Source of the DNA: an uncultured Gammaproteobacteria bacterium
GTDB taxonomy: Bacteria > Patescibacteriota > Patescibacteriia > XYB2-FULL-38-15
Assembly (NCBI GenBank): GCA_965231095.1
Contig: OZ246416.1
Coordinates: forward strand, 603,549 to 667,548
DNA length: 64,000 nucleotides
Reading direction: 5' to 3'
This document shows, piece after piece, positions 9,379 to 64,000 of the stretch. The translations under genes were made by a program, and so were the position numbers. Numbering within the stretch: position 1 is the first letter of the stretch; every line of letters starts with the position of its first letter. The notes under the pieces were generated by a model. That model saw only the letters and a list, made by a program, of their open reading frames with translations, had not been told where the DNA came from and made no database searches.

Positions 9379-9411
9379 ATATATTAGGTAACAAATGTGA
9401 TCCCCTAAAAT

Positions 9412-9846
9412 TTACCCGAGTAACTATAAGCCGGATTCTGTATCTCGCAGTGATGCGAGACGGTAATCATCTATCTAGGATTTTGATTGCTCAAAATCTC
9501 GAGCGGCTATTTTTGGCCTTGCACCGGATAGGTGTTTTCCACGGCGCCTGTCACCAGGCTGTCCCGCGTGAGCTCTTACCTCACGATTTCAACCTTACCT
9601 CCGCCTTTCGGCGGATCGGCGGTGTATTTTCTGTTGCACTGTCCGTGGGCTTCATTAATTGATGTTCGATTAAGCTCTATCCGCCGCGTAAACGGCAAAT
9701 ATAGCACAAACAACAAAACTTACTCCCCGTCGCTGTTAGCGACTATCTCTCTTTCGGCTTTATGCCGAAACGGTGTCCGGACTTTCCTCTCTCTTTTCCC
9801 CGATTTTAAACGGAAAAATGAGAGCGATTACCCATTACTCGGATAA
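9412..9846 (-). ncRNA. rnpB: RNase P RNA, bacterial type.
   Basis: The minus strand carries the universally conserved P4 elements GAGAGGAAAGTCCGGAC (5' region) and ACAGAATCCGGCTTAT (3' region). The 5' and 3' ends can pair as P1 (CCGAGTAA / TTACTCGG). No protein ORF is present. Confidence 0.7.
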
Positions 9847-27548: not shown

Positions 27549-27751
27549 ACAATTTATTTAAATCATAGCGGAAAAGGGATATTTTTTCAAGCCTAAAATC
27601 CCAGGCCGACTCGGCGAGTTTTTTATTTTCAAATTACCAATTACCCTTTACCATTTACCAATTACCAATTTTTTGTAATTGACTTTTTTATCTTTTTAAA
27701 ATAAACTCATACGAGGGCTATATTCCCGAAATCATGGAAGGAGGAAGAGGG

Positions 27752-28222
27752 ATGGAAGAGGGAAAACCAAAAAAAACGTGCAGCGATGCTCCGGTTTGGT
27801 GGCACCCGAACGGAATGATGATGCGACCGATGTCGGGATACCAAGAGCACAAGCTCCAAATCTTTAGCGACAGAGCCGTTCTTACGATCAGCCCCGCCGA
27901 AGATCCCCGCGAACACAACATCTGGCTTCTCGACTGGAAAATCACCCGCATCTCGGCTTTCACTATCAGCGTCAAGCTCAAAATCCCGGAAAAAATTCTC
28001 CGCCATGCCTTCGCTCTTGATGACGGACCATACGAATCCGATGAATGGCTACTCAAACACTACGGCGCCGATGCGGCAGAGCGAGGATATTACGTCCGCG
28101 CCGGAAATTACCTGAATATTCCCGGCCCGGGCACCGGCCACGACGGAGATTCAAATATCTCCATCTTCCTGCGCCCCGATATCAAGGAGGCAGTACGCCA
28201 GCTCCTCGAGCTGCTTCGGTAA
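27752..28222 (+). CDS. Hypothetical protein, encoded in a GC-rich islet.
   Basis: 156-162 aa ORF with locally elevated GC. A strong SD (GGAAGGAGGAAGAGGG) lies 7 nt before the ATG at 27752; the alternative ATG is at 27734. It is followed by a terminator. Confidence 0.5.
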   Translation: MEEGKPKKTCSDAPVWWHPNGMMMRPMSGYQEHKLQIFSDRAVLTISPAEDPREHNIWLLDWKITRISAFTISVKLKIPEKILRHAFALDDGPYESDEWLLKHYGADAAERGYYVRAGNYLNIPGPGTGHDGDSNISIFLRPDIKEAVRQLLELLR

Positions 28223-31387: not shown

Positions 31388-31497
<110 letters not shown>

Positions 31498-31548
31498 TCA
31501 AGCTAAAAACGCTTGAAATTTATTTTTGTATGTTTGCACAATTCTTGT

Positions 31549-34555
<3,007 letters not shown>

Positions 34556-34916
34556 ACAAGAATTGTTAAAACATACATTTTACAATTCTCATTTACTTTT
34601 TTGGTTCTCTTTCTTATGTTGGGTATTAAGATGCTCTTTTATTCAATTGTCAACGAACAATTTTTTTCTGTTTCTCGCCTCTCGTTTTATTTAGAGACCA
34701 GAGGCGGGAGCAAAAAATAATTTTAAATTTTTGGAAAAAGGACTAAAAAACCGCTCTTTCCGAGCGGCTTGGTACGACCAAAAAATAGGTTAGCCACTCG
34801 GGAACTTATAAGTTAAAACTTGTTTTACCATATTTTGCCCAATATCAGAGAAAAATTGTCAGGTGTAACTCTGGATAAAATGTGGACAACTTCCTCCGTT
34901 TTCTTAGTACATTAGT

Positions 34917-34945
34917 ATTTTAATACTACTCAAAAAAGATGTCAA
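34917..34945 (-). promoter_or_regulatory. Sigma70-like promoter upstream of the 23S-5S operon.
   Basis: Minus strand: TTGACA (34940-34945), a 17-nt spacer, then TAAAAT (34917-34922). It lies about 350 nt upstream of the 23S 5' end. Confidence 0.4.
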
Positions 34946-35058
34946 GGGGAATTTTTTATTTTCTCTCCCTTGCGGTCTTTCGCGTTTTTGCGTAATAAAA
35001 AAGTGGGTTGCCCGAAAGCTTCCCACTTGTCCCTCCATATTTTTCTAACGGCTCGCCG

Positions 35059-35271
35059 TCAGCTCCGCAGACTCTTGAACCAGCGGGCGATTCGCCCCAA
35101 GACGACCACGGCCACGAGAGCGACCATGACTGTGAGGCCGAACCGGAGTGCGATCCAGTCCTCTGTCCCGCAGATGAGCGCGAAGACAATCGCGGCCGCT
35201 CCTCCGAGCAACGCGACGGTCAGCTCCTTGCCGAGCACCGACCGTTCCTCCCAAAACTCTTTGATCCCCAT
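35059..35271 (-). CDS. Small two-TM membrane protein (70 aa), GC-rich islet.
   Basis: MGIKEFWEERSVLGKELTVALLGGAAAIVFALICGTEDWIALRFGLTVMVALVAVVVLGRIARWFKSLRS. High GC. It is last in the minus-strand islet operon. Confidence 0.45.
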   Translation of the reverse strand: MGIKEFWEERSVLGKELTVALLGGAAAIVFALICGTEDWIALRFGLTVMVALVAVVVLGRIARWFKSLRS

Positions 35272-35287
35272 CCAATCCTCCTCCCTC

Positions 35288-35497
35288 TCAACGCAGGTTG
35301 CGCAACTCCTCGCCGCGCTTCCTCTTCTCGAGCCAGGCCAAAAAGATCGTCAACGCGAGAAGAACGAAGAACCCGATGACGAACGGAACGACGCCTGGCT
35401 GTTTGAGCTTCAACCGGTACAGCCCGATCGCGAGCGAAACGTCCGAGAGAACCGCGGAGATCGTCGCGGCGATAACGAGTCCCCAATTGGGGTTCAT
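35288..35497 (-). CDS. Small two-TM membrane protein (69 aa), GC-rich islet.
   Basis: Internal Met of track ORF 35288..35707: MNPNWGLVIAATISAVLSDVSLAIGLYRLKLKQPGVVPFVIGFFVLLALTIFLAWLEKRKRGEELRNLR. Its start overlaps the upstream stop as ATGA, indicating translational coupling. Confidence 0.45.
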   Translation of the reverse strand: MNPNWGLVIAATISAVLSDVSLAIGLYRLKLKQPGVVPFVIGFFVLLALTIFLAWLEKRKRGEELRNLR

Positions 35498-35799
35498 GTG
35501 CACGTCCTTTCCTCGCCGGCCTGCCGCCGCTTGCCATACCACACCTTGAGATCCGCGCCGTGTTCCCAGTGCTTGGCCAAAGCAACGACCGCCTGGCAGA
35601 GCTGGATGTCCGTGAGGCGAAGGTTGGTCTCGTCCTTCGTCTCCAGGGCGATGTCTCCCATCGCCTCGAATCCGCTCGCGAGCCGCGCTTCCATCCGCAA
35701 AGCCCAACGCTCGGCGAAACGGAGAATCCGCCCCCCGTAACTATCCTCGGGGTTTGCCTCGAGTACCCGCTCCCACTCTCCCTGATTTTTGACTTTCAT
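35494..35799 (-). CDS. Hypothetical 101-aa protein, GC-rich islet.
   Basis: MKVKNQGEWERVLEANPEDSYGGRILRFAERWALRMEARLASGFEAMGDIALE... No recognisable domain. It is coupled to the downstream small membrane proteins. Confidence 0.45.
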   Translation of the reverse strand: MKVKNQGEWERVLEANPEDSYGGRILRFAERWALRMEARLASGFEAMGDIALETKDETNLRLTDIQLCQAVVALAKHWEHGADLKVWYGKRRQAGEERTCT

Positions 35800-35820
35800 T
35801 TTTCTCCTCCCTCCGCCGCG

Positions 35821-36189
35821 CTAACCGCCGGCGAGCAGACGCCTGACTTCCTCCGGCAATTTTTCCTTGCCGTTGATTTCAAAAGTACAACCGGCCTCCA
35901 CCATCATGTGCCGGAATTTCCCGTCGCTCGACATAGCAATCACCGTACCGCCGAAGGTCAAACGAAGCTCGTCAATGAGCGGCAATGTGTCGGGCTTGTT
36001 GCCCGGGACACGACGCAAGCAACCATCCAGAGCAACAATCCGAACGTCGGGATGTTCCGAGAAGAGCCGCCTTGCTTCTTCGACCGTACGAGCCTGCAGA
36101 AGCGTAGCCCAACCCGCAAACTCGCGGACAAAGTACGACTGCCACGCCGAATGATCCTCTACCACGAGTACTTTTGGAAGCCCACTCAT
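35821..36189 (-). CDS. Receiver (REC/CheY)-like domain protein, atypical (ED instead of DD acidic pair).
   Basis: MSGLPKVLVVEDHSAWQ...ARTVEEARRLFSEHPDVRIVALDGCL...TVIAMSSDGK... has a receiver-like alpha/beta pattern. A strong SD (GGGGAGGAAGAAGGAGGG) precedes the ATG, and a promoter-like TTGACA/TATAAT region lies at 36243-36258. GC-rich. Confidence 0.45.
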   Translation of the reverse strand: MSGLPKVLVVEDHSAWQSYFVREFAGWATLLQARTVEEARRLFSEHPDVRIVALDGCLRRVPGNKPDTLPLIDELRLTFGGTVIAMSSDGKFRHMMVEAGCTFEINGKEKLPEEVRRLLAGG

Positions 36190-36290
36190 CCTAACCCTCC
36201 TTCTTCCTCCCCATTACAACCTGACATATTAAATTATATCAAAATTATATTTTTGTCAACCCCGTCAGCCGAAATATTTTGTATCAAAAA

Positions 36291-36401: not shown

Positions 36402-36485
36402 ATGGGCAGGGAGGGAGTTGAACCCTCAAGCTCTTTCGAGCACAAGCTCCTAAGGCTTGCGTGTCTGCCAGTTTCACCACCTGCC
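36402..36485 (-). tRNA. tRNA-Leu (anticodon UAG).
   Basis: Minus strand: GGGCAGG-TG-GTGAAACTGGCAGACAC-GCAAGC-CTTAGGA-GCTTG-T-GCTCGAAAGAGC-TTGAGGGTTCAACTCCCTC-CCTGCCC-A. Long variable arm; anticodon loop cuUAGga. Confidence 0.8.
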
Positions 36486-36532
36486 CAAAATGAGTAGAGT
36501 CGGGGCGCGCTTGCCCCGTCGGATGACGGGGT

Positions 36533-43232: not shown

Positions 43233-43484
43233 ATGGAGAACGAAACGCTGACCTTTTCTGACCTCGAACCAGGACAGAACTTCGCTGTTCTGCCTGGCAA
43301 GGGATATAGTCGCCGGCGGGACGGCGACTGGCTCCGGGCGAGTAACCTCTTCTTGAGAGTCGCGAATCCGAACGGCAACGCCTTGCGAACCTGCGACAAC
43401 GAGATCTTCAAGATTCCCGACTCCGTACCCGTGATCCGAGTGAACATCAGCGGCAAAGCCGCTAGAAGAAGGAGGGGGAGATGA
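43233..43484 (+). CDS. Hypothetical 83-aa protein (GC-rich islet).
   Basis: SD GAGGAGGG lies upstream. Its stop overlaps the next start (ATGA). Confidence 0.45.
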   Translation: MENETLTFSDLEPGQNFAVLPGKGYSRRRDGDWLRASNLFLRVANPNGNALRTCDNEIFKIPDSVPVIRVNISGKAARRRRGR

Positions 43485-43963
43485 GTGCTAGTGAACCCGT
43501 GAAGCCAGAACAGACGGTCTGCGAGAAGAACGTAGACGTCCCGACTCTTCTGGTCGAACCTCTCTCGGCATCGAGTCGGCCGATCCGAGAAACTTTCGTC
43601 CAATGGTTTGGCCGGGCGAACGGCGCGGATCTCGGAGAAAGACAGTTCCGTTTCCCTGTGCCGCTACACCACGCAGACCGGCACTGGGAGGGGAATCCTC
43701 TGTTTTGGAAGGTTACTTTTCTCGGTACATTCCAAAAGTTTCCTTGGAATCCCCGGTCCAGGGAAATATACCGTGAAATCGCACCGTTTAGAGATAACCC
43801 TGACGCCGAAATCTTGGTCGCTCACCTTCGCGAACCAAGACACCCCGAAGATCCTGAACTGGACTCTTTCGGCCTCATGATCCCGATGACGACTCACCTG
43901 ACAGACTCCGCGTACGGGATCATCGCGCCACGAGAGTACCGCGACAGGACTATTTTTCCATAG
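43481..43963 (+). CDS. Hypothetical 160-aa protein (GC-rich islet).
   Basis: SD AGGAGGGGGAG lies upstream, and the gene is translationally coupled to the preceding one. No recognisable domain. Confidence 0.45.
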   Translation: MSASEPVKPEQTVCEKNVDVPTLLVEPLSASSRPIRETFVQWFGRANGADLGERQFRFPVPLHHADRHWEGNPLFWKVTFLGTFQKFPWNPRSREIYREIAPFRDNPDAEILVAHLREPRHPEDPELDSFGLMIPMTTHLTDSAYGIIAPREYRDRTIFP

Positions 43964-44084
43964 AGGAGGTTCGACAAAAAACAACAGAGCACGACCTGCG
44001 GGTACGGCTCTTTTTTATTGCTTTTTTATTCTACTTCTTCTAAGATAGCCAGATCGTTCCTTGAAAAAAGGAGGAAAGATAAAA

Positions 44085-45152
44085 ATGGATCACGAACTTG
44101 CTTCGTGCCAGAATGTCCTAGCCGATCGCGCAACGCGAGACGAAGACGCCAGACGGCGTTATCCCGAGTCCGAGGACGATGATGGTTGGCTCATGGATCC
44201 CTCGAACGTTGTCTCGCCCTATCTAATTGATGTTTCAAAGATCATGAACTGCCGGGCGCTACGGCGAGGGGGCGACAAAACCCAGGTCCGACCACTTGAG
44301 CCGAACACACACATCCGGCGGCGCCTTTCCCATTCGCTCGGCGTAGCGGGACTTGCTGTGCCGGTCGCCAAATTACTTGGTCTCCACCCCGATCTCACGC
44401 ACGCCGCGGGTCTTGGCCATGACATAGGCCACACCCCTTTCGGTCACACGGGCGAAGTCACCCTCTCTCGGCTTTCCGGAAAAAAAATCTGCCACGAAAT
44501 TCTAGGTGTCGTCATCGCTCAAAAAGTGGAACGCCGCGGCCGCGGTTTAAACCTCACACACCAGACACTTCTCTGTCTCCGGGATCACTCGCGCGGCGAC
44601 GGCCAGTTTGGCACCGAAACGTGCGAGTCGGAAGAGAGCGCCCTCGCCATGCACACCGACAAGATTGACTACTTCTGGGCCGACTATCACGACGTCTTTG
44701 AACGGGGTGATTGTTTGAACCCATCGGACTATCCCGAACTGGTCGGACTAGCCCAGTGGTTCGGCAAGGGATATCGCTCACGTACGGCAAAATGCCTTCG
44801 GGCGCTCTGTCTTGAATCAAAGGCGGCCGGCCGGATTTCTTTCGGGCTGTGCGAAGAGGCGATGCGGCTCACTCGAGTCAAGGAAATCATGTACGGAAAA
44901 ATCTACAACGTCGTGAACCGCCGGACGGAAATCATTTCCTTGATCGAGAGAGTCTATCGGGCGCTTGAGAAAATCGCACCCCACCTCGATCCCGTGTTCT
45001 TCATCGCGCTCTTGGGTGACCAAGAACTTCTTGGTCTCGCAAAAAAAGACAACCTTTCGCCTGCCGACCTTGCCGGCCTCTCGGCCACGGAGATTCTTGC
45101 GAACCTCAAGGAGACGAAGCTCGACCTCACGAACCCTGACTTGGGGTGGTGA
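44085..45152 (+). CDS. dGTPase-like deoxynucleoside triphosphate triphosphohydrolase (HD-domain phosphohydrolase).
   Basis: SD AAAGGAGGAAAG lies upstream of the ATG at 44085. HD-domain motifs: IRRRLSHSLGVAGLA (LTHSLEV-like) and HDIGHTPFGHTGE (HDxGHxPFGH). GC-rich. Confidence 0.6.
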   Translation: MDHELASCQNVLADRATRDEDARRRYPESEDDDGWLMDPSNVVSPYLIDVSKIMNCRALRRGGDKTQVRPLEPNTHIRRRLSHSLGVAGLAVPVAKLLGLHPDLTHAAGLGHDIGHTPFGHTGEVTLSRLSGKKICHEILGVVIAQKVERRGRGLNLTHQTLLCLRDHSRGDGQFGTETCESEESALAMHTDKIDYFWADYHDVFERGDCLNPSDYPELVGLAQWFGKGYRSRTAKCLRALCLESKAAGRISFGLCEEAMRLTRVKEIMYGKIYNVVNRRTEIISLIERVYRALEKIAPHLDPVFFIALLGDQELLGLAKKDNLSPADLAGLSATEILANLKETKLDLTNPDLGW

Positions 45153-52013: not shown

Positions 52014-52769
52014 ATGGAAACCAAGCTGATGGCGATCGTAATCGCCCTTTTCGTGGCGAGCTGCGGACTGGACACCGAAGGCCTGGGCGAACCCGACGAA
52101 GGGACTCTGCCCGAAGCGTCCGACGATACGGAGCCCGACATCGGCCCGGACGAAATCGTGGCCGACGTTCCCGGAGAAGACGCGGCCGAGGAAGACAGCG
52201 GGCATGACGAAGCGACGCCCGAAGAGACGACTGAAGACACCGTTGACTCCACCGAAGATGCTGAGCCGGAAGACGCGGACGACGCCGAAGACGTAGTCGA
52301 CGACGCGGCCGACGAAGGCAGCGAAGCTGACGCGGAAGACGCAGGAACCGAAGATGGCGATGCCGAAGACGGAGCAATCGATCCCTGCGCTCTGCCGGAA
52401 ATTCCGACAACAGGAATCTTCATCTTCTACTGCTTTGACTACGATCTCCTCTCCCCATTCGCGCTGGAATTTCAAATCGAACAAGGGGGCCTTCCGGTTG
52501 TCAGCTGGCGAGGATCGCCCGAGTGCACGTTCACCTCTCGCTCTCGCCGATTCGAATGCACTCTCACCCCGCTCGTCTGGGATGCGACCTACGTCTGGAA
52601 CATCCGGCTTGACCCTGGGGTCGGGATCGGTTGGTCGTGCGGACCAGAACTCCTTGAGATCTGGGGCACGCCACGAGCCTGGCTCAATGGAGTCGAACTG
52701 GCCGTCGACCCGGTGACAAACGGCGACGGCGGCTGCAACCACAGCTTCACGACGCCACCTCCTCCCTAA
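52014..52769 (+). CDS. Acidic putative lipoprotein (GC-rich islet).
   Basis: SD GGAAGGAGGGG lies upstream. Signal peptide with lipobox-like VASC. The Asp/Glu-rich N-terminal half and a Cys-containing C-terminal domain follow. High GC. Confidence 0.5.
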   Translation: METKLMAIVIALFVASCGLDTEGLGEPDEGTLPEASDDTEPDIGPDEIVADVPGEDAAEEDSGHDEATPEETTEDTVDSTEDAEPEDADDAEDVVDDAADEGSEADAEDAGTEDGDAEDGAIDPCALPEIPTTGIFIFYCFDYDLLSPFALEFQIEQGGLPVVSWRGSPECTFTSRSRRFECTLTPLVWDATYVWNIRLDPGVGIGWSCGPELLEIWGTPRAWLNGVELAVDPVTNGDGGCNHSFTTPPPP

Positions 52770-58718: not shown

Positions 58719-59147
58719 ATGCTTTTAAAACACAAAACCTTAATCACAATTATAATTGTTGGGTTTGGATTACTTGTCGCCCCCCCAACTTTTGCTTCCT
58801 GGCCGGCCACCCCGCTTTTGCCACCATGCACCACGGATGGCAATTGCGGTTTTAATGATTTTATTTTGCTCGGCGTCAATTTCACCAAAATGATTTTGGG
58901 TCTGGTCGGATCATTAGCTCTGCTTTTCTTTATTTATGGCGGCGTGATGTTTTTACTGGCCGGGGGAAAATCGGAAATGATTGAAAAGGGGAAAAAGATT
59001 ATTACCAATGCCGTGATTGGCGTCGCCATCGTGCTCGGCGCCTGGATAATCGTGAACTTTGCTATTGCCGCGCTTACCGGCACGCCGGTTAGTGATGTTA
59101 AAATTTTTGGCACGCAAGATTGGTGGCGAACTCCAGGGGAAGAATAA
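58719..59147 (+). CDS. Pilin-like paralog 1 (signal peptide + conserved two-TM C-terminal domain).
   Basis: 142 aa. Conserved core ...ILGLVGSLALLFFIYGGVMFLLAGGKSEMIEKGKKIITNAVIGVAIVLGAWIIVNFAI. Confidence 0.6.
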   Translation: MLLKHKTLITIIIVGFGLLVAPPTFASWPATPLLPPCTTDGNCGFNDFILLGVNFTKMILGLVGSLALLFFIYGGVMFLLAGGKSEMIEKGKKIITNAVIGVAIVLGAWIIVNFAIAALTGTPVSDVKIFGTQDWWRTPGEE

Positions 59148-59170
59148 TCTGAATTTCTAAAAAATAAAAT

Positions 59171-59797
59171 ATGAAAATCTTTAAAATTTTAGTTTTGGGT
59201 TTATTTGTTTTTTCGAGCTTCGCCTTTTTAATTCCAACAGCGCTGGCCTTGCGAACCTGCAGTTCCGGAACCGGCTGCGGACCGGGTGAAACTTGTGCCG
59301 AATTGCCCGCCGCAGACCAATGCGTTGACTCTTCAGGAGATAGAATTTACTACATTACCGGACGTTGTAGCGGCTATCCTTCTGTCGCTTGCCCCTCTGG
59401 ATTTACCTGTCAAACTATTCCTACCAGAGGATCTTATTGCATCACAAATGAAGCGGGAATGGCGTCTACAAGTTGTCCGGCAGGACAAGAGCTGGTAAAT
59501 GGTTCTTGCCAAGCAGCAAGCCAAGCCACCACCGGTCCGGTGGAATTTACCTCACCAATCGACGCCGTTTCCCCGACTCAAATTCTTGGTACGGTCATAA
59601 AAACCGTTTTGGGAATTCTCGGCGCGATTGCTCTCGCGATGTTTGTCTACGGCGGTTTTGTTTGGATGACTTCCGGCGGCAGCCCGGAGAAAATAAAAAC
59701 GGCGCGCACGACGCTCGTCTGGGCGGTGATTGGTATGGTTGTAATATTTTTAAGTTACGCCGCGGTTGATTTTGTCCTTTCAGCTTTTGGCGTTTAA
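59171..59797 (+). CDS. Pilin-like paralog 2 with a Cys-rich N-terminal ectodomain.
   Basis: 208 aa. Signal peptide; ten Cys in the variable region. Core ILGAIALAMFVYGGFVWMTSGGSPEKIKTARTTLVWAVIGMVVIFLSYAAVDFVL. Confidence 0.65.
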   Translation: MKIFKILVLGLFVFSSFAFLIPTALALRTCSSGTGCGPGETCAELPAADQCVDSSGDRIYYITGRCSGYPSVACPSGFTCQTIPTRGSYCITNEAGMASTSCPAGQELVNGSCQAASQATTGPVEFTSPIDAVSPTQILGTVIKTVLGILGAIALAMFVYGGFVWMTSGGSPEKIKTARTTLVWAVIGMVVIFLSYAAVDFVLSAFGV

Positions 59798-59800
59798 ACA

Positions 59801-60313
59801 ATGAAAAAAAATTTAACAAAAAGGAGTACGACTTTTTCCATCTGCTTGTTTTTAATTTTAAGCAGCTGGATTTTTATTTTTAGCAGCTCGCTAGCCGAGG
59901 CGACTTGCATTACAGGCGCTGAATGTCCCGCCGGACAAGTTCGCGGCGCCGGCCCTTGCCCTGATGCCGGACAAATAAATTGCGTTTCCGAGCCAACTTC
60001 TTCAACCTCTGAAACGACCGGTACTCCAGAAAAAGTAAAGTTAGAAAATCCCCTCGGCGGTACGGGAACAATCGGCGAGGTCACTTCCCCCACCAAACTT
60101 ATCGGAAATATTATAAAAACTATTTTAACGATTGTCGGCGCCTTGGCCCTCGCGATGTTTGTCTACGGCGGGTTCACCTGGCTCACCTCCTCCGGAAGTC
60201 CGGAGAAAGTTAAAAAAGGAAAGGATATTTTAATTTGGGCGGTCATTGGCCTGATAGTAATTTTTACAAGCTACACAGCGGTAGATTTTGTCTTAACCGC
60301 CTTGGGGGTTTAA
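59801..60313 (+). CDS. Pilin-like paralog 3 with a Cys-containing N-domain.
   Basis: 170 aa. Core IVGALALAMFVYGGFTWLTSSGSPEKVKKGKDILIWAVIGLIVIFTSYTAVDFVL. It starts 3 nt after the previous stop. Confidence 0.65.
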   Translation: MKKNLTKRSTTFSICLFLILSSWIFIFSSSLAEATCITGAECPAGQVRGAGPCPDAGQINCVSEPTSSTSETTGTPEKVKLENPLGGTGTIGEVTSPTKLIGNIIKTILTIVGALALAMFVYGGFTWLTSSGSPEKVKKGKDILIWAVIGLIVIFTSYTAVDFVLTALGV

Positions 60314-61183
60314 ATGAAAAAAAACTTTACGAAAATTTTTATCTGTCTCTTCGCGCTCTCTCTCGCTGGACTCATTACCGCACGCAATGCGGCGGCGGAA
60401 GAATTCGGAGCCTGCGAGTGCGTAGAAGATACCTCCATCACTGTCGGGGCTTGCAGCGAGTGCGCGACGGCCTGCGCAACTTCTTTTGAAGCTGAGGGCA
60501 GACCTTTTACCGTAAAGTCTTGTGAAAATTCCTCTGTCCCCGGCGCGAAAGAGTGTTTTTGTCATTTAATAACAGCTTCTATACGCCGCGAAGAATGCCG
60601 TATCGGCTGTGTTGGTTATACTTATAATTTTACTCCCGCGGCAGAGCCCGTGCCCGTTGACGAAAGAGATGCTTGCACCCGTCAAGAAGATTGCGTTGGG
60701 ACAGCCGGTGACTGCGGCGCGACTCGCTGTTTTTGTGACACCACGGCTAGTATTTGTCGATTTAAAAAAGACAGCGGCTCGGTTTGTTCGGGAAACTTTG
60801 AATGCAACTCAAATATTTGCACGTCTGTTCCTGGCAGAGAAGGAAAAACTTGTAAAGTCGGCGGGCTCACTCCTCCGGGCGAAGAGACTCCTGCGCCCAC
60901 CGGCGAAGAAGACGTTTTTCCGACTTATCAAATAAATTCTCCTATCGGCGAAGTTACTGGACCGCAACTTATCGGCCGAATTATTAAAGCAATCCTTGGC
61001 CTGGTCGGCGCCTTAGCGCTCGGAATGTTTGTCTACGGAGGGTTTACTTGGTTGACCTCGGCCGGCAGCCCTGATAAAATAAAGAAGGGCAAAGACATTT
61101 TAATCTGGGCGACAATTGGCCTCATCGTAATTTTTACAAGTTATACCTTGGTGGATTTTCTCCTGCGATCGTTTGGATTATAA
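60314..61183 (+). CDS. Pilin-like paralog 4 with a large Cys-rich N-terminal domain (more than 30 Cys).
   Basis: 289 aa. Core LVGALALGMFVYGGFTWLTSAGSPDKIKKGKDILIWATIGLIVIFTSYTLVDFLL. Confidence 0.65.
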   Translation: MKKNFTKIFICLFALSLAGLITARNAAAEEFGACECVEDTSITVGACSECATACATSFEAEGRPFTVKSCENSSVPGAKECFCHLITASIRREECRIGCVGYTYNFTPAAEPVPVDERDACTRQEDCVGTAGDCGATRCFCDTTASICRFKKDSGSVCSGNFECNSNICTSVPGREGKTCKVGGLTPPGEETPAPTGEEDVFPTYQINSPIGEVTGPQLIGRIIKAILGLVGALALGMFVYGGFTWLTSAGSPDKIKKGKDILIWATIGLIVIFTSYTLVDFLLRSFGL

Positions 61184-61223
61184 CCTTCCATTTTAAATGG
61201 AATCCCGAAAGGGGGTGAAGAAA

Positions 61224-61589
61224 ATGTTAAAAAAAGTATTTTTCTGTTTAACCATCTTGAGTCTTTTGACTCCAGTTGTGGTCTCCGCACAAAATGACAT
61301 CTTGGGCCTGAATGTCATTAACAATGCGAACATCGGCTTGCAAGCTTCAGATCCGAGAGCCGTGGCCGCGAGAATCATTAACGTGGCGTTGGGTTTCTTG
61401 GGTATTATCGCCGTGGTCATCGTCTTGTACGGTGGCTTCATGTGGATGACAGCAGCTGGTAATGAGGAAAGAATTTCCAAAGCAAAACAGATCTTGACCG
61501 CCGGTGTTATCGGCTTGGTCATTATCGTTATGGCTTGGGCAATCGCCTCTTATGTTGTGAAGACTTTGATGAACGTTACAAACACCTAA
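61224..61589 (+). CDS. Pilin-like paralog 5 (short form; codon usage and GC differ from its neighbours).
   Basis: Core FLGIIAVVIVLYGGFMWMTAAGNEERISKAKQILTAGVIGLVIIVMAWAIASYVV. The likely start is MLKKVFF at 61224, with a GGGGGTG SD-like element upstream; the track start is 61197. Confidence 0.6.
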   Translation: MLKKVFFCLTILSLLTPVVVSAQNDILGLNVINNANIGLQASDPRAVAARIINVALGFLGIIAVVIVLYGGFMWMTAAGNEERISKAKQILTAGVIGLVIIVMAWAIASYVVKTLMNVTNT

Positions 61590-61633
61590 AGATTATAATG
61601 GGGTGGGGTTAACTCCCCACCCCATTCTCGATT

Positions 61634-62056
61634 ATGTTAAAAATAGAAAAAGTAAAAATTTTAAAATTTTTTTGCGTCGCGGCAATACTCTTTATAATTT
61701 TTGGCGCAAACTTTGCTCTCGCCCAACCCGCGGATGAGGATACAAGTGACACAAGCGGCGTTCGCTCCGGACTTGGCGAAGCGGCAAATATCGGGGGGAT
61801 CCCCCAGACCGGCGGCGAAGAAGCTATCCCAAACTTGATTGGCAATATTATTATGGGTGCGCTTGGTTCGGTCGGCATTATCTTTTTAATTTTAATGATT
61901 GTCGGCGGAGTAATGTGGATGACCGCCTCGGGAAATGAAGAGCGGGTGACTAAAGCCAAAAGCTTGATTACAAACGCCGTGATTGGCATGGTCATTGTTT
62001 TTTCCGCTTACGCCATCACTTATTTTGTCACGGAAACTTTACTTAACACGAGATGA
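61634..62056 (+). CDS. Pilin-like paralog 6.
   Basis: 140 aa. Core ALGSVGIIFLILMIVGGVMWMTASGNEERVTKAKSLITNAVIGMVIVFSAYAITYFV. Confidence 0.65.
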   Translation: MLKIEKVKILKFFCVAAILFIIFGANFALAQPADEDTSDTSGVRSGLGEAANIGGIPQTGGEEAIPNLIGNIIMGALGSVGIIFLILMIVGGVMWMTASGNEERVTKAKSLITNAVIGMVIVFSAYAITYFVTETLLNTR

Positions 62057-62544
62057 AAAATTATAAAAAAATCTTGGCTGTTTTTCTTTTTCTGCTTGTC
62101 GGATTTTTTATTTTTTACGGAACAGCCTCTGCCTCCATTTTTGGCGGCCTTGATACGGCGCGCGAAACTGCCGGCTATTCAGAAGACACTAATATTTATT
62201 CCACCATCAGTCTGATAATTTCCGTCGCCCTTGGCTTTGTTGGCGTGGCTTTTTTAGGGCTCACGCTTTATGGCGGATTAATTTGGATGCTGGCCCGCGG
62301 CAATGAACAAGAAATTGAAAAAGCAAAAAGATTAATTGAAGCGGCGGTGATCGGTCTGGCGATTGTTTTTGCCGCTTACGCCATCACTTATTTTGTCACT
62401 GAAAAAATTCTTTCTTCTACCTCCGGCGGGGGAGAAGGATTCACTTGCGCTGAAGGTGAGGTTTCGTGTTCTTGCTCTGGTGACTCTTACCCCGAATCCC
62501 TTTGTGCTCCGCGCGCTGAAGATTGTGTTTGTACTTCTTTTTAA
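62053..62544 (+). CDS. Pilin-like paralog 7 with a C-terminal Cys-rich tail.
   Basis: 163 aa. Core ALGFVGVAFLGLTLYGGLIWMLARGNEQEIEKAKRLIEAAVIGLAIVFAAYAITYFV, then ...GFTCAEGEVSCSCSGDSYPESLCAPRAEDCVCTSF. Confidence 0.65.
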   Translation: MKNYKKILAVFLFLLVGFFIFYGTASASIFGGLDTARETAGYSEDTNIYSTISLIISVALGFVGVAFLGLTLYGGLIWMLARGNEQEIEKAKRLIEAAVIGLAIVFAAYAITYFVTEKILSSTSGGGEGFTCAEGEVSCSCSGDSYPESLCAPRAEDCVCTSF

Positions 62545-62568
62545 ATTAAATTTTCAAAAATAATTACT

Positions 62569-63006
62569 ATGAAATCTTTTAAAAAAAATTTTATTTTTGC
62601 CTGTTTTACTTTAGCGCTTCTCACCCTGGCTATGCCCCTTATTACGAATGCCGTGGCCGCCCCCGGCGACACTTTGAATAGATTGAAAGAAGTCGGCGGC
62701 GAAGCTTACGGCACCGGCGAGGAGCCGCCAAAAGATGTGACGGAAATTGTCGGTGGAGTAATTAAAACCGGCTTGAGTATTATGGGCGTAGTCGCCGCGA
62801 TTTTAATAATTTATGCCGGCTATCTTTGGATGACAGGTCGCGGGAAAGAAGAAAGAATCAACAAGGCCAAAGAAACTTTGGAGGCGGCAATTATTGGTTT
62901 AATTATTATTCTGGCGGCCTACGCCATTACTTATTTTGTGGTGGATAGATTGATGCAGGCCTCCTCGGGCTCGCCATCCGGCGCTACACCGCCCCCTACC
63001 CCATAA
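62569..63006 (+). CDS. Pilin-like paralog 8.
   Basis: 145 aa. Core GLSIMGVVAAILIIYAGYLWMTGRGKEERINKAKETLEAAIIGLIIILAAYAITYFV. Confidence 0.65.
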   Translation: MKSFKKNFIFACFTLALLTLAMPLITNAVAAPGDTLNRLKEVGGEAYGTGEEPPKDVTEIVGGVIKTGLSIMGVVAAILIIYAGYLWMTGRGKEERINKAKETLEAAIIGLIIILAAYAITYFVVDRLMQASSGSPSGATPPPTP

Positions 63007-63018
63007 TTTAACAAAACT

Positions 63019-63423
63019 ATGAAGACTATTTCTAAAAAAATTTTCGTCTCTGCTCTGCTAAGTCTAATTCTCGTCATTTTTGCTCTGCCGGTCTTTGCTC
63101 AAGTAGGAGAATTACAAAATTTTGGTCGAGCGGCTTATGGCGAAGCTGAAGCGCAATATCAGGAAACCCAAGGACCCCTCGTCATTGCTGGCAAAGTTAT
63201 CAACATCGCCCTGGGAGCTGTCGGGGTAATTGTAGTTATCTTATTTGTTTACAGCGGATTTCTCTGGATGACCGCCGCGGGCAACACGGAAAAAATTGAA
63301 AAAGCAAAAAAAATTCTTGGTAACGCAATTGTTGGGACAATGATTGTCATTATGGCTTACGCCATTTCCTATTTTGTTATCAATCAATTATTAAAAGCTG
63401 CCGGCACACCAGTCACGCCGTAA
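63019..63423 (+). CDS. Pilin-like paralog 9.
   Basis: 134 aa. Core ALGAVGVIVVILFVYSGFLWMTAAGNTEKIEKAKKILGNAIVGTMIVIMAYAISYFV. Confidence 0.65.
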   Translation: MKTISKKIFVSALLSLILVIFALPVFAQVGELQNFGRAAYGEAEAQYQETQGPLVIAGKVINIALGAVGVIVVILFVYSGFLWMTAAGNTEKIEKAKKILGNAIVGTMIVIMAYAISYFVINQLLKAAGTPVTP

Positions 63424-63520: not shown

Positions 63521-64000
63521 TTACCACGGGTTCCCGATGTTAACCCTTTGTTCCTCCCACCCGACACAGAACAGGTGTTCCGTATCGGACCTCGTGACTG
63601 GCCGATCGAAGTTCGGGGCGAGGTACTCCTCGAACTCGAAGTGGTGCCGCTCACAACCGGTCCGGAGATCGGTCTCGGCGAGCGGGGCGTAGAACTGCCC
63701 CTCGGTGTGCGGCGGCAGAAGTGGCAGACCGGCGTAGAGGTCAGTAAAGGACAGGTCTGCCCCGTCCATCCTGACCCTGACGTACCGATCCTTGTTGTTC
63801 ACGACCCGCACGAGATGCGGACCGCGCCACTGGTTCGGATAACCGTGGCCTTCCACGAAGGCCAAGTCCGGCGGCGGGGGCGGCGGAACGAAGTATCCGC
63901 CGCCGAAGCCGCCACCGTATCCCGAAGCGCCGTAGGCCGCGGGCGGAGTGTAGTTCGGGTAGCCGTAGGCTTGCCCGCCCCAGATGCCGCAGCCAAGCGA
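63521..64000 (-). CDS. Hypothetical GC-rich protein, 5'-partial (continues beyond the window end), with a Gly/Tyr/Pro-rich low-complexity N-terminal region.
   Basis: The minus-strand frame is open from 64000 down to the stop at 63521. It reads ...AYGYPNYTPPAAYGASGYGGGFGGGYFVPPPPPPDLAFVEGHGYPNQWRGPH...HHFEFEEYLAPNFDRPVTRSDTEHLF... GC is about 60%. Confidence 0.4.
   Translation of the reverse strand, partial: SLGCGIWGGQAYGYPNYTPPAAYGASGYGGGFGGGYFVPPPPPPDLAFVEGHGYPNQWRGPHLVRVVNNKDRYVRVRMDGADLSFTDLYAGLPLLPPHTEGQFYAPLAETDLRTGCERHHFEFEEYLAPNFDRPVTRSDTEHLFCVGWEEQRVNIGNPW

Follow-up and report, generated by a model that had tools for sequence, protein, structure and literature searches.

Gene content and signals of the locus

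The window analysed here is a stretch of 64,000 nucleotides (nt) from an uncultured member of the Patescibacteria (contig OZ246416.1 of assembly GCA_965231095.1, positions 603,549 to 667,548 of the forward strand; 64 kb of a genome of ~886 kb), and between its tRNA-Leu(UAG) and 23S rRNA genes lies a compact cassette of four genes for a predicted receiver-domain protein (gene 1, REC), a Tad4-like protein (gene 2) and two small membrane proteins (gene 3 or s1, and gene 4 or s2). This cassette is a conserved, lineage-restricted, modular accessory operon that occupies one chromosomal site in one clade of Patescibacteria. The features of the locus, with protein lengths in amino acids (aa), are as follows:

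36487..36402, minus strand: tRNA-Leu(UAG), the flank upstream of the cassette
36259..36233, minus strand: sigma-70-type promoter, TTGACA-N15-TATAAT, both hexamers exact and spacer short
36212-36206 and 36200-36195, minus strand: double Shine-Dalgarno sequence, GGGGAGG and GGAGGG, in the leader before the gene 1 ATG at 36189
36189..35821, minus strand: gene 1, open reading frame of 122 aa
35799..35494, minus strand: gene 2, open reading frame of 101 aa
35497..35288, minus strand: gene 3 (s1), open reading frame of 69 aa whose ATG overlaps the gene 2 stop codon as ATGA
35271..35059, minus strand: gene 4 (s2), open reading frame of 70 aa
35028..34997, minus strand: intrinsic-terminator-like hairpin, AAGUGGG...CCCACUU followed by UUUUUU, from an RNA fold
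34945..34917, minus strand: 23S promoter, TTGACA-N17-TAAAAT
34557..31545, minus strand: 23S rRNA, the flank downstream of the cassette

A preliminary description of this DNA had reported a TTGACA/TATAAT promoter on the minus strand followed by a double Shine-Dalgarno sequence, four genes of these same lengths with an ATGA overlap, and a position between tRNA-Leu(UAG) and the 23S promoter, and all of these features were located. The cassette promoter is the sole exact match to TTGACA-N15-TATAAT in the 64-kb window, where 0.01 would be expected; its spacer is 15 nt long rather than the optimal 17, which is why a generic promoter scan that accepts spacers of 16–18 nt missed it. Genes 2, 3 and 4 each have a GGAGG-type site of their own. 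The terminator hairpin lies ~50 nt upstream of the 23S promoter (the fold of 35062..34985 has a free energy of −22.1 kcal/mol and a z-score of −2.3), and it is absent from the generic scan list because its loop is longer than that scan permits. The four-gene set is thus a real, self-contained operon with its own promoter, Shine-Dalgarno sites and terminator.

The G + C (GC) content of ~60% given in the preliminary description is borne out by a value of 0.599 at 35001-36000, against a window mean of 0.448. A profile in 100-nt steps shows that the GC-rich block, ~35050-36190, is the coding region of the four genes; the individual genes range from 0.56 to 0.63, and their GC content at third codon positions (GC3) is 0.63–0.82, compared with 0.42–0.48 in the flanking LTD, RuvB and membrane protein genes. 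The long spurious frames that had been pointed out are also present (256 and 297 aa on the plus strand, 139 and 121 aa on the minus strand); these overlapping open reading frames are by-products of the GC content.

Conservation and modularity of the cassette

The locus of the window is also present in an independent assembly (L001), as look-ups by exact sequence and by homology showed; related Patescibacteria from other samples contributed seven more distinct loci, which makes eight distinct cassettes with that of the window. In two scans of the GTDB representative genomes, the L004 genome alone was found. The reservation of the preliminary description that the region might be an assembly chimera falls away, since the same arrangement is present in L001 as well as in the seven further loci. 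Every locus that is long enough has the same order: a gene for an LTD/PKD surface protein on the divergent strand, tRNA-Leu(UAG), promoter, cassette and 23S rRNA. Seven of the eight cassettes were seen beside the LTD/PKD protein and tRNA-Leu(UAG), the neighbours being housekeeping features (LTD protein, tRNA, rRNA, PolX and RuvB), and the synteny persists where the identity of the LTD N-terminus falls to 37–50%. The cassette is a long-standing syntenic resident, not a fresh insertion. Its gene content is as follows:

Window: REC, Tad4-like, s1, s2 (70 aa)
L004 group: REC, Tad4-like, s1, s2 (97 aa), 318-aa protein
L018 and L020: REC, Tad4-like, s1, s2 (125-135 aa)
L007: REC, s1, s2 (125 aa)
L019: REC, s1, s2 (121 aa), 316-aa protein
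L010: REC, s1
L002: Tad4-like, s1, s2 (66 aa), 288-aa protein; no REC

The s1 gene is thus present in all eight cassettes, s2 in at least seven, REC in seven and the Tad4-like gene in five. At L002 (positions 1-120 of a groundwater contig), the cassette promoter and leader are followed directly by the Tad4-like gene. In most of the cassettes (window, L004, L010 and L018-L020) the start of s1 and the stop of the gene before it overlap by 4 nt; at L002 the overlap is 1 nt, and at L007 a 14-nt gap separates the two genes. The additional protein of 288–318 aa found in three cassettes (L004 11562-12518, L019 2125-3075 and L002) and absent from the window begins with transmembrane segments, contains a coiled coil and has a C-terminal motif, IDATKRFKHHPSKEA...GHPLRERYEK, that is strongly conserved; no Pfam or PADLOC family matches this protein.

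The promoter and the Shine-Dalgarno leader are conserved where the surrounding spacer is not. The window-type promoter is also present in L002-L006 and L010 and aligns in L007 and L019, L018 and L020 have TTGACA-N17-TAATAT at its position, and seven loci share an unchanged leader block, GGGGAGG...GGAGGAGGG. Purifying selection acts on all four genes, with ratios of nonsynonymous to synonymous substitution rates (dN/dS) of 0.12 for REC, 0.29–0.48 for the Tad4-like gene, 0.36–0.54 for s1 and 0.31 for s2. The cassette genes diverge at rates that do not follow their flanks: between the window and L004, the LTD proteins are 76%, the REC proteins 83% and the Tad4-like proteins 43% identical, and between the window and L010, the LTD proteins are 74% and the REC proteins 48% identical. 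Three other explanations for the locus, namely an assembly chimera, spurious open reading frames and a recent single insertion, were rejected, since the independent assemblies, the purifying selection and the deep synteny speak against them.

In every locus the cassette has a GC content of 56–69% compared with ~40–47% in the flanks, and it stays high despite a synonymous divergence of ~0.5–1. High GC3 across relatives whose synonymous sites are near saturation is not explained by a recent transfer that awaits amelioration, and the persistent excess points to recurrent exchange, or to GC-biased conversion, at a hot spot flanked by tRNA and rRNA genes. The cassette resembles tRNA-adjacent islands in its foreign composition, its position immediately 3′ of a tRNA gene, the tRNA fragments near it, its variable content and the mismatch between the divergence of its genes and that of the flanks. 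It differs from them in its size (~1.2–2.5 kb), in having neither an integrase nor bounding direct repeats, in the conservation of both site and type of cargo across deep divergence, and in a GC content that stays high.

These same features raise the question of whether the locus is without present function, being either what is left of a prophage or integrative element that was inserted at tRNA-Leu and is now decaying, or an artefact of assembly. A gene of a phage family, a GC content far from that of the host, adjacency to a tRNA gene and tRNA-Leu fragments beside the intact gene are what such a remnant would be expected to show. Against this, no integrase, lysin or phage structural gene is present in the cassettes and no direct repeats bound them; the cassette DNA has no counterpart in phage or plasmid collections, and IMG/VR yielded neither REC nor a Tad4-like protein of the Patescibacteria type, so that nothing beyond the Tad4 family itself matches a phage or plasmid. 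In addition, a remnant is not expected to keep all four genes under purifying selection with a conserved promoter and Shine-Dalgarno leader, or to recur in an independent assembly and seven further distinct loci. The idea of a remnant is largely refuted, and we consider it very improbable indeed.

The tRNA side of the site carries relics of its own. The relatives compared (L004, L007, L010 and L018-L020) have one intact tRNA-Leu(UAG), of a type that reads GCCCGGG...CCCGGGCA. The window has only broken pieces of this type: ~36555-36534 (minus strand) corresponds to the first ~22 nt, and ~36383-36290 (minus strand) to the part from the variable arm to the 3′ end, with an extra ~55 nt. The different intact tRNA-Leu(UAG) of the window, GGGCAGG...CCTGCCCA (36487-36402), sits between the two pieces. 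The two outer pieces pair end to end in a fold. L007 has a homologous relic of ~100 nt after its tRNA, which ends in the 3′ end of the L020-type tRNA-Leu. These relics look like the footprint of tRNA gene replacement or recombination. A split or intron-containing tRNA was also considered and is unproven, as ARAGORN (with its intron and tmRNA options) and a permissive Rfam search recognise the intact tRNA alone.

Gene 1 encodes a predicted single-domain receiver

The AlphaFold2 (AF2) model of the gene 1 protein has a predicted local distance difference test score (pLDDT) of 95.8 and a predicted template modelling score (pTM) of 0.90, and it shows a (beta-alpha)5 fold. A Foldseek comparison with the PDB gave the receiver domains of ArcA, KdpE, VicR and DivK as best matches (template modelling scores, TM, of 0.75–0.79), and the top 50 matches are essentially all receiver domains (TM 0.66–0.79). 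Its relatives number 719 representative clusters at E ≤ 1e-3 in an exhaustive search and are mostly 115–125 aa long; 51 of 87 aligned relatives match Pfam Response_reg (best E = 3e-10), and a profile of the family finds response regulators in the PDB with E-values down to 4e-12. Multi-domain relatives have no informative fused domain.

The phospho-acceptor positions are filled by E11-D12, D55, S87 and K108; D12, D55 and K108 are at least 90% conserved in the 87 relatives, and the Ser/Thr position (S87) varies among close ones. The preliminary description had called this protein receiver-like and without an output domain, and fold and profile uphold both points; it had also called the acidic residues atypical, and in this it was mistaken, as the four positions are canonical. 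The fold model and the family profile indicate that gene 1 encodes a true but divergent single-domain receiver, and from its residues it can probably be phosphorylated.

Like regulators of the CheY/DivK/Spo0F type, the protein is a stand-alone (beta-alpha)5 receiver of ~120 aa with the same key residues. Unlike them, it has diverged too far to pass the threshold of Pfam Response_reg, it has a G100-C101 pair that is near-invariant in and specific to its family and a DGCL motif after the acceptor Asp, and its gene is linked to mini membrane protein genes instead of a kinase, chemotaxis or phosphorelay gene. CheY, DivK and other single-domain regulators work through protein–protein contact; lacking an output domain, the gene 1 protein would have to act in this way as well.

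Gene 2 encodes a divergent Tad4-family protein

The preliminary description had taken the 101-aa gene 2 protein for an orphan. It is instead a clear match to the Pfam family PF25186 (Tad4; E = 9e-19, 68.2 bits with a cut-off of 25, over profile positions 1-95 of 113) and to phrog_9822 (E = 5e-15). A profile search returned more than 2200 clusters of relatives, with PF25186 annotated on all 120 that were listed, and the Tad4-like genes of the related cassettes each have a precomputed PF25186 match. Full-length homologues that are 32–38% identical (tblastn) are found in Bacillus Herelleviridae phages, Mycobacterium phage Kumao and a Listeria phage. The AF2 model is a five-helix bundle (pLDDT 92.7) whose best structural match in BFVD is Kumao gp10 (TM 0.82); a fold search found no PDB neighbour of the model, and neither a sequence nor a fold search found a solved Tad4 structure.

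The protein shares with Tad4 the size class (~100–120 aa), the N-terminal helices (MKVKDQ..YG..I.RFAE.WA..ME), the G..L.DIA segment and the WEHG.EL..W helix, and its predicted bundle superposes on that of the Kumao homologue. Two segments are missing: SHxADTEGITGFMYG between helices 3 and 4, which 108 of the 120 listed members carry, and the C-terminal tail GxGVxNPAxLxI, carried by 110 of the 120. Gene 2 has KDETNLR-LTDIQLCQ in the region of the first of these and ends 12 residues after helix 5. These two segments, the most conserved of the family, are missing throughout the Patescibacteria versions, and in a neighbour-joining tree of 123 family members the five Tad4-like proteins of Patescibacteria cassettes form one clade. 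Gene 2 is thus a divergent Tad4-family member of a distinct subclade. It also differs from Tad4 in its setting, being encoded at a conserved syntenic site of a Patescibacteria chromosome and not in a phage, between a receiver gene and a translationally coupled membrane mini-protein gene; the phage Tad4 homologues have neither membrane mini-protein nor receiver neighbours.

Tad4 is described as a phage protein that inhibits type I Thoeris (Yirmiya et al., Cell 2025, as cited in PMC13402655). The proteins Tad3-Tad7 bind to ThsB, the TIR protein of Thoeris, and obstruct its NAD-processing active site with a flexible loop (PMC13402655; bioRxiv 10.64898/2026.01.28.702374), and TIR immunity has been reported to be a target of the family across kingdoms (bioRxiv 10.1101/2025.06.06.658234). 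The cassette could then be a counter-immunity module in which the Tad4-like protein blocks a ThsB-like TIR enzyme that processes NAD and the other genes are accessory, so as to protect the episymbiotic cell or to disarm the host bacterium or a resident self-harming system. The 68-bit Pfam match to a family of ThsB binders speaks for such a role, and the Tad4-like gene evolves faster than REC (dN/dS of 0.29–0.48 vs 0.12), is only 43% identical where REC is 83% identical, and is gained and lost within the cassette, as would fit an arms race. On the other hand, both candidate regions for the loop that enters ThsB are altered or absent in gene 2, and the inhibitory device would be missing from the whole Patescibacteria clade if that loop lies in either of the two lost segments. 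In addition, gene 2 has no secretion signal, three of the eight cassette versions do without a Tad4-like gene, and in none of the loci was a TIR or Thoeris gene seen close to the cassette; none of the ~54 open reading frames of the window looks by eye like a TIR protein or a kinase, no systematic domain scan having been made. On balance we think a counter-immunity role of this kind unlikely.

Genes 3 and 4 encode mini membrane proteins

The preliminary description had given each of the two small proteins two transmembrane segments, and Kyte-Doolittle profiles agree, at residues 6-24 and 36-54 of s1 and 17-35 and 40-58 of s2. The s1 protein ends in a charged C-terminal tail, EKRKRGEELRNLR. Its homologues in the eight distinct cassettes are 63–74 aa long, each starts just ahead of the first transmembrane segment, and the build with two such segments and a charged tail is common to all of them. 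A public gene call for gene 3 of 105 aa (L001 5262-5579), which starts inside the Tad4-like gene, was considered and set aside, as the alignment of the eight homologues favours 69 aa; because the public call is the 105-aa product, the exact 69-aa protein is absent from the protein collection. The s2 protein and its counterpart in L002 are 57% identical, and the 125–135-aa versions of L018 and L020, which have four transmembrane segments, align with it over their N-terminal half.

Neither s1 nor s2 matches a family at threshold in Pfam, NCBIfam, PHROGs or PADLOC. Below threshold, two s1 relatives resemble Phage_holin_3_6 (E = 1.9e-4 and 0.042; the better scores 21.9 bits with a cut-off of 28.4) and one resembles SLATT_1 (E = 0.12); s1 of the window has unrelated weak matches only, and from these scores the similarity to Phage_holin_3_6, an actinobacterial holin family, can be taken as a hint and no more. 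The s1 protein resembles class II holins and small membrane toxins in its small size, two transmembrane helices and highly charged C-terminal tail. It differs from them in that it meets no family threshold, has no endolysin and no phage context, and is kept at a chromosomal locus under purifying selection.

If these resemblances reflect function, s1 and s2 would damage membranes once released, and the upstream Tad4-like protein or REC, produced at a fixed ratio to them by translational coupling, would restrain them, in the manner of toxin–antitoxin or abortive-infection systems. Of the readings considered, this comes nearest to the idea in the preliminary description. The generic build of s1 (63–74 aa, two transmembrane segments, charged tail), the sub-threshold similarities of its relatives and a 4-nt overlap with the preceding gene that recalls antitoxin–toxin coupling all fit such a toxin or holin-like module, and composition, mosaicism and position beside a tRNA gene are typical of selfish accessory modules. 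The same proteins meet no family threshold, however, and the window s1 lacks even the weak matches of its relatives; no component matches PADLOC, there is no endolysin or nuclease partner, and a single syntenic site across deep divergence suits a resident function better than an addiction module. We regard a membrane-damaging role as improbable.

Interpretation

The PADLOC-DB v2 searches gave zero matches for the four window proteins (E ≤ 10) and for eight proteins of related cassettes (E ≤ 1), and the sole functional family link of the cassette is to an anti-defence protein, not to a defence protein. The suggestion in the preliminary description of a signalling, toxin-like or abortive-infection module has thus found no direct support; a signalling or membrane role appears the most plausible. 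Each recognisable part of the cassette belongs to a known family. We propose that the cassette is an accessory membrane module, specific to the lineage, in which REC and the Tad4-like protein are cytosolic partners, a reading to which we give roughly even credence.

In such a module the s1/s2 membrane pair would be the constant working part, and REC and the Tad4-like protein would be interchangeable cytosolic partners. REC might serve as a phosphorylation-dependent switch that docks on the membrane pair, by protein–protein contact of the kind made by CheY and DivK, and the five-helix bundle of the Tad4-like protein might be a protein-binding module captured from a phage, which would modulate or block either the membrane pair or an NAD-processing enzyme encoded elsewhere. 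Related genomes may swap cassette variants by recombination anchored in the conserved flanks, the tRNA and rRNA genes; such exchange would explain the tRNA fragments and, by way of GC-biased conversion, perhaps also the lasting GC excess.

Several observations weigh against a membrane module of this sort. No family assignment ties s1 or s2 to any activity, and gene 1 itself has no match to Pfam Response_reg (PF00072), even at E ≤ 10. A scan of JGI metagenomes with gene 1 found four distant receiver genes (38–46% identity) that stand alone, without the cassette and its membrane partners, so REC need not act on s1 and s2. No histidine kinase or phosphodonor was found in the window or the related contigs, as judged by eye and from precomputed Pfam lists only. 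Finally, the modular presence and absence of the genes means that the four products could equally act independently.

A bolder possibility is that ultra-small episymbionts have domesticated a phage Tad4-type inhibitor in a phospho-regulated, recombination-prone cassette directed against TIR/NADase immunity, be it the reaction of the host bacterium to the parasite or a suicidal system of the episymbionts themselves. We think this quite improbable. If it were true, the use of viral anti-defence proteins would extend to cellular parasites; Tad4 and its relatives have so far been described as phage weapons against TIR-based bacterial immunity. Two alternatives deserve mention in this connection: the Tad4 fold may have cellular uses unrelated to Thoeris, which would matter for "anti-defence" annotation by homology, or obligate episymbionts may use phage-type counter-immunity. 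The Patescibacteria Tad4 subclade, its operon partners and the GC-rich modular locus are absent from the papers on Tad4 cited above and from the results of a literature search on Patescibacteria and anti-defence.

Other features of the window

Further GC-rich islands (54–65% GC) are present at 43481-45152, 52014-52769, 27734-28222 and 63521-64000. They hold a 363-aa HD-domain protein (Pfam HD, E = 3e-12) with an upstream open reading frame of 160 aa, a very acidic, lipoprotein-like protein of 251 aa and two open reading frames without a family. The island with the HD gene is GC-rich in L004 too, which suggests that such GC-rich islets are conserved in the lineage.

On the plus strand, 58719-63423 encodes about nine paralogous small secreted or membrane proteins of 130–290 aa, which have in common a hydrophobic segment at the C-terminus and the motif GG(F/V/L)xWMT(A/S)xG(N/S)xExxxKAK and look pilin-like by eye. 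The 23S gene forms a 23S-5S pair (31388-34557, minus strand), and as the 64-kb window contains no 16S rRNA gene, the rRNA genes are unlinked. The 23S match is 3013 nt long for a model of 2925 positions and the RNase P RNA (9411-9843) is 433 nt long for a model of 367 positions, which suggests small insertions in both.

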